DNA from: Escherichia coli
GTDB taxonomy: Bacteria > Pseudomonadota > Gammaproteobacteria > Enterobacterales > Enterobacteriaceae
Length of the DNA stretch: 64,000 nucleotides
Assembly: GCF_003018255.1 (NCBI RefSeq)
Contig: NZ_CP027440.1
Strand: one strand, 5' to 3'
The position numbers are program-made. Of this stretch, positions 37,801 through 40,800 are shown piece by piece. Numbering within the stretch: position 1 is the stretch's first letter; every line of letters starts with the position of its first letter.

Positions 37801-40800
37801 TCAAATCCAGCATCGTCCATTGCGACAACACCCCGTGATATTGCAACCGATAATTTTTTTGCTGTGCGCCAGTAAAAACCGCCTTTAATCCCAAGGCGTT
37901 TTCTGACTTTGTCATTTTTGGCTTCGTAATACAGTGCAATTTCTTCTTTATCAGTGCTCATTGATAAACCTCATAACTATTTTAAGGTTGTACGAATCCC
38001 TGCCATTGCTGGCATGCTTAATCAACGGGTATGGCGTTAATACGGCTGGCGGGTTATCCAGCCGGTATTTCGTTATTCAGGTACTGCGATACTTTGTTTA
38101 ACGGGAGACATTCACCGGAAATTTTTTGCTCGTCTCTTGCCTGATGGCAGGATTCTTTACTGGCATAAATTCCGGTAATCACATTCTGTGGCTCACCTGT
38201 TATCAGAAAAACCGTCATCATCAGTGCAAACGCTGAACTCACTGCTGCCCTCCGAAAATGCCAAGTTCAAGAAGGGCAATTCTGGAGAGTATGGAATTAT
38301 CATTGAGAAGATAAGGCTCATATTTTCTCATCCTGATGGCGTCTTCAGTAAACTCCCGGTTACTGAGCAGAATACCAATATTAAAACACCCTTCAGACGT
38401 ATTAACGTTTGGTAGTGACGTTTCCATTATCGCGTCCTCAACAATGAATTTTGTGATGTGGTGCCTGGTGCCTCCAGGTGACGTTAACCAGTTAACAATT
38501 AACGCCGGATTGTTAGTTGATGTCTGTTACGCCAGTAAAAGACCGCTTGTTTTAACTGTTCCGCGTGCGCTTAGCCGCATTCACCGCATCACAAAATACA
38601 CTTTAAAAATGGCGGATATCCATTTCCGCCGAATCACCAGAAAAGTGATAACAGAGGTTGTTGTGGCGGTGTTGTCACTCAGGCGTATGGTCAACCTGAC
38701 AACCCGGTGCATTTTCTGGAGCAATGGAGGAAGCCCCAGCCATACTTACCGCCGCGCCATTTCGCGGATTGCCACAACCGGAAGCGCACGATCGAATTAC
38801 ATTTAACGACGACATATACAGAGAGACTAACTTCGCCGAGCGCTTTCGTGTTGTGTGCCTGCTTTTAACCACGTCAGGCGAGGTGGACCTGTTATTCCCC
38901 AACAACAAGGATCTTGTTAATCTGGATATCCCCAACAACAATAAGAGTATTGAATGTGATCGCTGAATTAACGGCAGCAATGACGGCTATTCGTGAAACC
39001 GCTCAGATTGCAAAACTAATGAACGAGGCAAAAACTCAAGCTGAAGTAAATGCGGCTATTGGTGAACTGAACTCAAAGCTTGCATCTATTCAGCACGAAT
39101 GCGTGTCTCTCGTTGAGCTGGTGAGCACTTATCAAGAAATAAATGCTTCTCTCAAAGCTAAAATTGCAGAATTTGAAAACTTTGAGGCTCAGACGGAAGG
39201 TTATATCCTTAACCAACTTGAGTCGGGAACTTTTGTGTACTCGAAGGAGGTAACCGTGAACGGCGGCAGCATAATCATGCATCTTTGTCCAAAATGTTTT
39301 GGACAAAAGATAGTATCGATACTTCAACCATTCCCGGTTAGAGAATATGAGTTTTTTCATAAAAGCAGGTGCCTCTACTGTGAAAATCAGTTTCTTATGA
39401 ATAAAAATCCGGATTATGTATCGCCTCCATCTATTGAGGAGTTGGCCAGAAAACTGAACGGCAATCTGTAGATTGTTACTGTTATGGATATCCAGATTGT
39501 TAAAGAGCATGCCGGATGCTTGCTTGTGTCCGGCGCGTGTGCACCAGTTCTCCCCGTGGAGGATTCCTTAACTACCAGACTTCATTAGTCAGAGTTTCTT
39601 GCTAACCAGCGACGCGCGCCAGCTTCAGTTTTAAACGTTTTGCTTCTGGTATACGTCATCGCGGTAAACGTGCCGTCCTGGTTGGGAAACACGCCGCATA
39701 CCAGAGATTCGTTGTTGCCAAGATTGAGCGTATCCATGTTGACCTCATTCCCCCTTAACGCCGGGGCGCGGAACTAAAAACCTGCTGCGCTGTTATACAA
39801 AGTGTTCCCGCCGTCATGTTCATACGCCTCGGGCTGGCTACTTAACCCCTGACCACTGCCGGGTAACTCGAAGTATTGCCTGGCGTTCTGTGGGATGGGG
39901 TTGGAATAAAATAAAGTTTAGAAAAATGAACTTTATGAGTCAATGTTTTTTTTATCAAAACATGACAGCAGGCAGCTGTTAAGCCATCAATATGATGGCG
40001 TACAGTAAATTAAGGGGATTAGTTAAATATCTTGTTGAATTTTAAAGCATACACCTAAAATGCGGGATATATCATCCAGCATGATTGATGGGTAGCGTGG
40101 ATTTGAGGGAACTAAGAGGATGTCAGGTCCTTCTATTTCCAATTTACGAATTACTGGTGTAGTTGTTCCTTTTGGTAATGCTAGAACAATATTGCCATGT
40201 TGTGCGGTTCGATCTGGGTCGACAAAGACCGTTGATCCATTCGGAATTGATACACTTCCGCCTGCGGCAGACATACTATCGCTCTCTAGAACTACTGCAA
40301 ATGTATTGACAGAAGTTTCACCAGCGAGCTGAACACAAGAGAGTCCTGAGGTATTTGTCATATAATCACTCCAACTTGCTGCCTGCTGAAGTGATAGTAG
40401 CGGAACCCTTTTTACCGGCGGCAAAGATAGATCACTATATTCACTTATATTTAACACACCTCCATTAAGAAGCCAGTTTTCACTTACTTTCAAGATCTTG
40501 GCGAGAGAGCTTATGTAACGAGCGGATGGAGTACCTCCACCGTTTATCCACTGACTGACAGAGCCCTTTGATGCGCCTGTAGCGATGGCAAGGTGCTTTC
40601 CCTTCAGATTTAGCGCGTTCATGCGCTGAGTGATGCGTTCAGATATTGTTTGCTTAGTCATGTTTTGATTTTAAAACACTAGAGGTTTTGTTTCTTGACT
40701 TTCTTTTGTTTTGATTATTAAACTTTGTTTGTTCAGTTTTCTGGAGTGAACTATGAAAAAATCAGAAGTTTTAGGATATTTTGGCGGTGTTGTTAAAACA

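Follow-up and report, generated by a model that had tools for sequence, protein, structure and literature searches.

How does a lambdoid prophage that has no N antiterminator carry transcription through its early-left operon? The question is raised by a 64,000-nucleotide stretch of Escherichia coli DNA (NCBI RefSeq assembly GCF_003018255.1, contig NZ_CP027440.1), the whole of which is called the window below. The window is itself an Stx2-type Shiga-toxin prophage, and the N-less early-left operon, read on the minus strand from the promoter pL, thus belongs to a toxin-converting phage. We found that the interval 38054..39737 is the promoter-proximal part of an operon of the dicBF type, the kind present in the prophages Qin and Rac and in phage Tritos. 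It carries, where a convergent accessory gene has been inserted behind the first gene, a perfect boxA of the type known from ribosomal RNA (rrn) operons. The reading that we favour from the sequence, with a probability of about one in two, is that this boxA would recruit host Nus factors without N and protect about 1.1 kb of untranslated RNA from Rho, as rrn operons do. Four features are needed to follow the argument (lengths of proteins are given in amino acids, aa):

39585..39737, minus strand: ydfA, the first pL gene, a YdfA/YdaF homologue (DUF1391) of 50 aa plus TAA (Pfam 5e-30).
39510..39562, minus strand: two hairpins ending at boxA, CUCC-ACGG-GGAG and then GCCGGA-12 nt-UCCGGC (from the sequence, partly from the predicted fold).
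39489..39509, minus strand: rrn-type boxA TGCTCTTTAACAA (39509..39497) with spacer TCTGGATA, a zero-mismatch match that is unique in the window.
38914..39471, plus strand: ORF185, the convergent accessory gene or "moron" (PHROG 1244, 1.1e-57, a family without assigned function; RefSeq hypothetical protein of 171 aa with its start at 38956).

On the pL strand, TGCTCTTTAACAAT at 39509..39496 is identical over 14 nt to the boxA and spacer of rrnG, which read "ugcucuuuaacaau" (PMC2724277). By arithmetic estimate, about 5e-4 exact matches of 14 nt would be expected in 128 kb of sequence, and the next-best matches to TGCTCTTTAACAA in the window contain 2-3 mismatches. In addition, the functional BoxA consensus GYTCTTTAANA (PMC5725501) has a single match in the 64-kb window, GCTCTTTAACA at 39508 (minus strand). 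The consensus lies on the transcribed strand, within the pL transcript, and with no other match, the pR operon included, the window has no second nut site (nutR). Rfam holds no family that matches the element. This boxA had escaped an earlier note on the same DNA, which saw no convincing boxA/boxB nut site; a search of the minus strand recovers boxA with 0 mismatches, and the note was right that the nut site is incomplete, as no conserved boxB hairpin goes with it. Sequences beyond the spacer differ between cassette types, their hairpins being different or missing, and no conserved lambda-type boxB lies 3' of boxA. In the window itself, a 5-bp hairpin, CAAUC-UACA-GAUUG, is found at 39475..39462, 21 nt downstream of boxA.

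The element comes behind the first gene, at about 400 nt from the promoter, and hairpins precede it; the order hairpin then boxA is that of rrn operons. The hairpins are also present in Tritos, Qin and two viral contigs (L029 and L094), with stems and loops altered. The predicted minimum free energy (MFE) fold keeps CUCC/GGAG and does not form GCCGGA/UCCGGC.

Because ORF185 is convergent, on the plus strand, pL transcripts must cross it in antisense. From the ydfA stop (39585) to the start of dicB (38427) there is no conserved forward open reading frame (ORF), which leaves ~1.1 kb of untranslated RNA, ~0.56 kb of it antisense to ORF185. BoxA stands at the upstream end of this long untranslated stretch, which would be exposed to Rho, the Rho site itself being assumed. 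The position of boxA also coincides with a cassette junction. ORF185 is missing at this place in Tritos and Qin; similarity to both runs through the hairpins, ends exactly at boxA and resumes ~0.7 kb further on, shortly before a small RNA (sRNA) described below. In the ORF185 protein the N-terminus is a coiled coil and the C-terminus a CPKC...CLYC zinc ribbon (CxxC...CxxC); neither Pfam nor PADLOC has a match for it. As it occupies the place that sieB has in Rac, our guess by analogy is that it may serve in exclusion or defence. No intrinsic terminator follows ORF185 on the plus strand, and its transcript would for that reason run into ydfA in antisense.

The same element recurs in other phages. 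When viral contigs were scanned for GCTCTTTAACAATCTGG, three contexts were recovered: early leaders of T7-like phages, in which a forward gene comes next; classical nutL sites (L277, L346 and L356), in which the same boxA-spacer is followed by boxB and an ORF for an arginine-rich N-like protein; and lambdoid leaders that have one or the other of two hairpins before boxA. Where the context is T7-like or N-type, the gene downstream is mostly a forward one. In the lambdoid group, an antisense ORF fills the first 600 nt after boxA at 39 of the 41 non-redundant loci, and these ORFs belong to at least five unrelated families. On its other strand, as read by eye in the lambdoid sequences, the common hairpin (A) is the intrinsic terminator of the antisense gene. 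A pR-directed boxA was found within 5 kb at none of the related lambdoid loci (0/52), and so boxA is not half of a nutL/nutR pair.

Closer relatives behave in the same way. A perfect boxA is present in ten of 85 distinct relatives with the same pL leader, and all ten have an antisense ORF of 148-249 aa directly downstream, from two unrelated families. The same boxA with TCTGGRTAT precedes a different antisense gene in three contigs (L029, L094 and L103). In PhiR49_1 the same boxA-spacer lies ~110 nt after pL, before an antisense ORF of 242 aa. Across cassettes with differing flanks, 17-20 nt including boxA are kept perfectly. From these comparisons, boxA appears to travel with the antisense gene.

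The operon that surrounds boxA is ordinary. Its remaining genes and RNAs in and next to the interval are as follows:

40023..40661, minus strand: cI-type repressor with a helix-turn-helix (HTH) domain and an S24 LexA-like peptidase (Pfam Peptidase_S24 1.5e-13 and HTH_3; PHROG transcriptional repressor), directly upstream of pL.
38605..38643, minus strand: DicF-like short sRNA (alignment with Qin, Tritos and Rac; terminator scan).
38430..38603, minus strand: structured 170-nt RNA between the sRNA terminator and dicB (MFE -75.9 kcal/mol, z = -4.5, 0/200 shuffles as stable).
38239..38427, minus strand: DicB, cell-division inhibitor, 62 aa (Pfam DicB 7.4e-34 over the full length; RefSeq dicB).
38054..38242, minus strand: YdfD homologue (DUF1482), 62 aa (Pfam 1.3e-14; PHROG 1092, 3e-33).
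35517..37961, minus strand: exonuclease of 814 aa, the next gene of the pL operon (Pfam Exonuc_VIII 6.8e-34; Rv2179c-like 3'-5' exonuclease 1.8e-60).

Gene identities were established by Pfam, PHROGs and synteny. On the minus strand the order is pL, a leader with a short upstream ORF (uORF), ydfA, the two hairpins, boxA, the stretch antisense to ORF185, the DicF-like sRNA with its intrinsic terminator, the 170-nt RNA, dicB, ydfD, the exonuclease gene, xis and int. DicB is preceded by ydfA, is followed by ydfD and lies downstream of the immunity repressor, which by Pfam and synteny places the operon in the dicBF type. The order is that annotated in Tritos, where xis and int likewise follow the exonuclease gene, in Qin of K-12 and, with kilR replacing dicB, in Rac. 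The operon type, the lack of N and the gene families are textbook Qin/Rac biology and need no new explanation. The earlier note had not recognized this layout, and it missed the DicF-like sRNA with its terminator, the 170-nt structured RNA and the convergent gene on the plus strand.

Is N absent, or too diverged to be seen? Profile searches for N families with Pfam and PHROGs found none in the interval or around the immunity region, and they assign other families or nothing to every ORF of the interval, as expected from the earlier impression that its small ORFs are unlike N. The first of these ORFs had been given as 39737..39582, 51 aa; start and strand hold, and the gene ends one codon earlier (39737..39585, 50 aa plus TAA). 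The Shine-Dalgarno sequence noted before it is AAGGGGGA, 11 nt upstream of the ATG. The two coupled 62-aa ORFs placed at 38427..38054 are dicB (38427..38239) and ydfD (38242..38054), which overlap by 4 nt (GTGA) in an arrangement of translational coupling; K-12 ydfD is at the same position. Each of these small ORFs belongs to a defined family other than N (DUF1391, DicB, DUF1482), and the idea of an N diverged beyond recognition is not supported. Searches by tblastn with N of lambda, P22 and phi21 and with HK022 Nun (with approximate query sequences) gave only noise and no match in the early region. No ORF of the early region has an arginine-rich motif; hence no N with such a motif at its N-terminus lies next to pL. 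Two further minus-strand ORFs, of 101 and 145 aa, have no family in Pfam or PHROGs. Their positions, antisense to a real gene or within DNA that is non-coding in K-12, lead us to treat them as probable shadows. The dicBF class of lambdoid phage has no N gene. The earlier suggestion that early antitermination works differently here stands to this extent: N is absent, so antitermination, if any, must differ.

An alternative to N was sought at the start of the pL transcript, where three features are found:

39915..39943, minus strand: candidate pL promoter TTGACT-17-TAAACT (consensus scan; putative start site).
39824..39907, minus strand: conserved 5' leader of the pL transcript, with a C-rich 5' end and then GAACGCCAGGCAAUACUUCGAGUUACCCGGCAGUGGUCAGGGGUUAAGUAGCCAGCCCGAGGCG (81 distinct prophage sequences).
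39755..39823, minus strand: predicted uORF of 22 aa (MNMTAGTLCITAQQVFSSAPRR), read from the sequence, which ends 19 nt before the ydfA ATG.

Related phages with different promoters resemble this sequence from just downstream of the candidate pL onwards. The 85-nt leader begins at about the transcript start and is nearly invariant behind many different -10 regions and unrelated promoters, those of Rac and Tritos included; in Qin it is deleted. It ends in the Shine-Dalgarno sequence and ATG of the uORF. In relatives, a second ATG of the uORF (39817..39815, ATGACGG) opens a frame continuous with YdfA and gives a product of 76-78 aa, and the PHROG 751 profile has an N-terminal extension of 19 residues.

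By eye, the leader shows some likeness to put, the antiterminator RNA of HK022 (GAACG..., and CGGCAGTGGTCAGGGG beside CGGCGTGGTCAAGGATGA of putR). We built a covariance model, R1, from an alignment of 20 putL-like sequences and HK022 putR, with the put structure taken from PMC9378689 and HK639 putL defined by its GenBank annotation; the alignment reproduced the published stems, and covariation was seen in stem II. R1 scored 93.7 bits with HK022 putL, 88.9 with the annotated HK639 putL and 44.1 with HK022 putR. At E up to 10 it found nothing in the window, Tritos, Qin, Rac or PhiR49_1, and an unfiltered search of 37500..43000 gave only weak matches of at most 8.4 bits, none of them at the pL leader. 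The combination of stem I, stem II and the GAACGG and GGCAAU blocks is absent. An HK022-type put in the pL leader was rejected because R1 has no match in the window or its relatives, and we treat the leader as a conserved 5' untranslated region (UTR) of unassigned role and not as put. Hybrid leaders were observed in three contigs (L320, L321 and L314), in which the 5' half of put (GTCGAACGGCGCGACTTTAAACCATGCGTCGGAAC) is fused directly to CGCTCTTTAACAATCTGG; judged by these sequences, put and boxA modules appear to have been exchanged at the same position behind pL.

Antitermination by BoxA and Nus factors without N is a known kind of mechanism. The rrn boxA-spacer together with 7 residues upstream is enough to counter Rho-dependent terminators, with no need of the rrn boxB or boxC (PMC2724277); Nus factors are able to block Rho in the absence of N (PMC5725501); and BoxA shields long untranslated CRISPR arrays from Rho (PMC7665894). 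We propose a model for the operon in the window that addresses how pL transcripts might reach the distal genes. Once the repressor is lost by cleavage, pL would fire, and its transcripts would need no N. The uORF and ydfA would be translated, and these stretches would be guarded by the coupling of transcription to translation. At the start of the ~1.1 kb of untranslated RNA, nascent boxA would recruit NusB/NusE with NusA, NusG and SuhB, and the elongation complex would then resist Rho while it traverses the antisense gene, as in rrn operons and CRISPR arrays. The DicF-like intrinsic terminator, the only strong one on the pL strand in this stretch, would not be overridden; it would act as a leaky attenuator at which part of the transcripts stop to give the sRNA. 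The remaining transcripts would reach dicB, ydfD, the exonuclease gene, xis and int. What we infer in this model is that Nus factors are recruited, that Rho poses a barrier in the antisense stretch and that the terminator is read through in part.

Several points weigh against this model. The antisense stretch has no striking C-over-G bias except around boxA (in a sliding count along the pL transcript, C exceeds G only modestly, around boxA and at the 5' end), and the Rho site is assumed. The MFE fold pairs GUUAAGGA (39530..39560, upstream of the hairpins) with UCUUUAAC (39497..39505, in boxA; z = -1.8), and this predicted pairing, if real, could gate or limit access to boxA. Nus complexes on mRNAs can instead repress translation, as at suhB (PMC5725501). 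Relatives with other antisense genes, such as Rac with sieB, lack boxA, which is therefore not obligatory. The survey of ORF strands was mechanical, and the surveyed loci are related to one another. Last, boxA could be an ancestral nutL relic or merely a conserved recombination joint between modules. This last point belongs to an explanation that we consider unlikely, although it deserves serious attention: that there is no processive antitermination, and that strong firing of pL, translational coupling and leaky read-through suffice, with boxA as a nutL relic or a joint borne by the cassette. Operons of the Qin, Tritos and Rac type do work with the same layout and no boxA, the element lies exactly at the module boundary, and the identical boxA-spacer in the nutL sites of L277, L346 and L356 makes descent from nutL plausible. 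A relic should decay, however, and here the 17-20 nt are intact in one cassette after another; moreover, boxA is always in the pL orientation with the antisense gene next (39/41 loci).

Could the leader itself do the work of put as a member of another family, that is, as a new cis-acting RNA that antiterminates or counters Rho? It has the position of putL, its near-invariance behind unrelated promoters and its short put-like stretches are in keeping with such a role, and the put/boxA hybrids show that modules are exchanged at that position. On the other hand, R1 did not match it with filters off, its fold stability is ordinary (z = -0.04), its variable positions show no compensatory pattern (the collected sequences being too similar), it has no paralogue in the window or the pR operon and no family in Rfam, it is missing in Qin, and a sequence that ends in a Shine-Dalgarno and ATG may be a mere 5' UTR; we regard this explanation as improbable. 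Still less credit can be given to an N supplied in trans by a co-resident lambdoid prophage, with the hairpin CAAUC-UACA-GAUUG as boxB. The boxA-spacer is the same as in N-type nutL sites, the 5-bp hairpin lies 21 nt downstream of boxA, and STEC (Shiga toxin-producing E. coli) genomes hold several lambdoid prophages, with this region matched at a median of 2 places, and at most 10, in each genome; yet hairpins after boxA vary by cassette type, there is no nutR-like partner and the window encodes no N. It is equally hard to believe in YdfA, or another small ORF of the interval, as a protein antiterminator, whether a highly diverged N or one unrelated to it. YdfA is encoded by the first gene after pL and is almost invariant across prophages, and its predicted fold is weakly like nucleic-acid-binding domains (AP2/ERF, UPF0339, dsRBD); with a best Z of at most 4.5, the fold search gives no more than a lead, in the direction of an AP2/Int-N-like or UPF0339-like fold. 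However, N is a disordered peptide, and YdfA lacks an arginine-rich motif and is predicted to be a folded beta-beta-beta-alpha domain (predicted local distance difference test, pLDDT, 80). The 101-aa and 145-aa ORFs are no better candidates, given their placement and their lack of a family.

Protection by boxA and Nus factors, the reading that we prefer for the window, may also apply more widely. The survey suggests a rule, a perfect boxA before antisense accessory genes in pL operons. We suggest, tentatively, that accessory genes lying backwards in the early-left operons of lambdoid phages may bring a boxA of their own at the edge that the pL polymerase reaches first, recruit host Nus factors without N, and so avoid Rho polarity on the genes for recombination, excision and inhibition of cell division. 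If this is true, N-less phages, Stx prophages included, would make general, N-independent use of the rrn antitermination machinery.

The two RNAs downstream of the antisense stretch are variants of known elements. In the DicF-like sRNA, a terminator (stem 38630..38611, then AUUUUU) comes immediately after the DicF 5' seed UUUCUGGUGA. The sRNA shares only the 5' 10 nt and the terminator with K-12 DicF, the central part being missing, and DicF is annotated at the homologous place in Tritos. We call it DicF-like because the Rfam DicF family (RF00039) gave no match to it, either at the gathering score or at E up to 10. Its pairing with the start region of ftsZ (RNAduplex) is no better than that of shuffled sequences, in a crude test that did not clearly separate K-12 DicF either. 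The short variant recurs in three viral contigs (L049, L079 and L121), and it may have changed its target range.

In the 170-nt RNA, a long-range helix of ~20 bp closes several hairpins, including CCUGG-AGGCA-CCAGG; in relatives, whose sequences are too similar for more, the helix shows only wobble-compatible single changes and a few mismatches. The stretch 38395..38612 matches Rfam STnc100 (RF02076) with 33 bits (E 1e-4), below the gathering threshold of 47 bits. A bona fide STnc100 is found directly after stxB, at 51816..52031 (plus strand, 158 bits). The 170-nt RNA shares 21/23 nt with it (51948..51970), with a compensatory change in a hairpin (CCUGG/CCAGG versus CCGGG/CCCGG). By this resemblance the 170-nt RNA is a probable diverged relative of STnc100, and one structured module would recur in the early-left and the late operon. 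Among relatives, the element is found after DicF, KilS or the short variant, with dicB, kilR or a third gene next. It may be the site of RNase III processing that Faubladier et al. reportedly described for the dicB operon in 1990.

Parts of the 2.2-kb stretch match 4755 of the 5426 complete E. coli genomes. Near-full-length matches come mainly from STEC, for example O113:H21 and O91, in which RefSeq annotates the same families and no N. The closest full matches of the early-left operon are from STEC that lack the enterocyte effacement locus (LEE), such as these serotypes. The closest full-length relative (L002; E. coli UC4224, NZ_CP104472.1) has 98.5% identity; at 5058..6031, RefSeq gives its repressor as split and partial and its cro as frameshifted, and both genes are intact in the window. 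The 814-aa exonuclease combines an N-terminal exonuclease VIII (RecE-type) region, a long acidic low-complexity linker and a C-terminal Rv2179c-like 3'-5' domain. Sequence searches of the Protein Data Bank (PDB) and PADLOC with YdfA, DicB, YdfD and ORF185 gave nothing useful.

Elsewhere, the prophage contains the following:

47665..48486: Q (PF03589).
49060..50118: DNA methylase.
50159..50407: three tRNAs.
50501..51460: stxA.
51472..51741: stxB.
52552..54543: sialate-esterase-like gene.

Since in this prophage xis and int are reached from pL, and Q and stx from pR, the control of early transcription matters for both induction and toxin release. Between pR and Q, directly after the hok/sok locus (sok 45467..45641), a strong intrinsic-terminator-like hairpin is found at 45860..45877 on the plus strand (AACCCGCTTCTGCGGGTT, then a T run). 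Transcription from pR would have to pass this hairpin on its way to Q, and through Q to stx, without N or put and without a boxA on that strand.

N-less lambdoid phages are common, and the Stx2 prophages of LEE-negative STEC are among them. A recent genome paper on an N-less lambdoid phage offers a put-like mechanism as a guess only (PMC12315714). In our limited literature search we found no description of an N-independent boxA that precedes antisense accessory genes in the pL operons of N-less lambdoid phages. With put excluded here, boxA is offered in its place as a concrete cis element that can be mutated. If true, the rule suggested by the survey would add phage mRNAs to the rRNA and CRISPR arrays from which the BoxA/Nus mechanism is known.

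How does the operon compare with known systems? With Qin dicBF, Rac kilR and Tritos it shares its families and their order (repressor, promoter, ydfA/ydaF, sRNA-terminator, structured spacer, dicB/kilR, ydfD, exonuclease, xis, int) and the lack of N, and with Rac a convergent accessory gene after ydaF (sieB in Rac). It differs from these in that a boxA-plus-ORF185 cassette replaces ydfB and ydfC, and in that the repressor is a LexA-like cI and not DicA; it also has a short DicF variant that Rfam does not recognize, and its prophage carries stx2. Like lambda, P22 and phi21, it has a boxA on the pL transcript, with a boxA-spacer that also occurs in true nutL sites (L277, L346 and L356), whereas N, a conserved boxB and nutR are lacking and boxA is ~400 nt away from the promoter, beyond the first gene. 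HK022 and HK639 resemble it as N-less lambdoid phages with a conserved leader at the putL position, but the put model has no match here and there is no second, putR-like copy. The early leader of T3 has 20 nt in common with it, GCTCTTTAACAATCTGGATA, downstream of promoter A3 and before an RNase III site; there a forward gene (0.3) follows, whereas here the gene is antisense. With the BoxA elements of rrn operons, CRISPR arrays (Salmonella, Vibrio) and suhB it shares a perfect BoxA consensus and the 14-nt identity to rrnG, with rrn the hairpin 5' of boxA, and with CRISPR arrays the position of boxA at the start of a long untranslated transcript (PMC2724277, PMC5725501, PMC7665894). In contrast to rrn and CRISPR, boxA here is part of a phage mRNA operon and stands ahead of a protein gene read in antisense, where the binding of Nus factors is putative.

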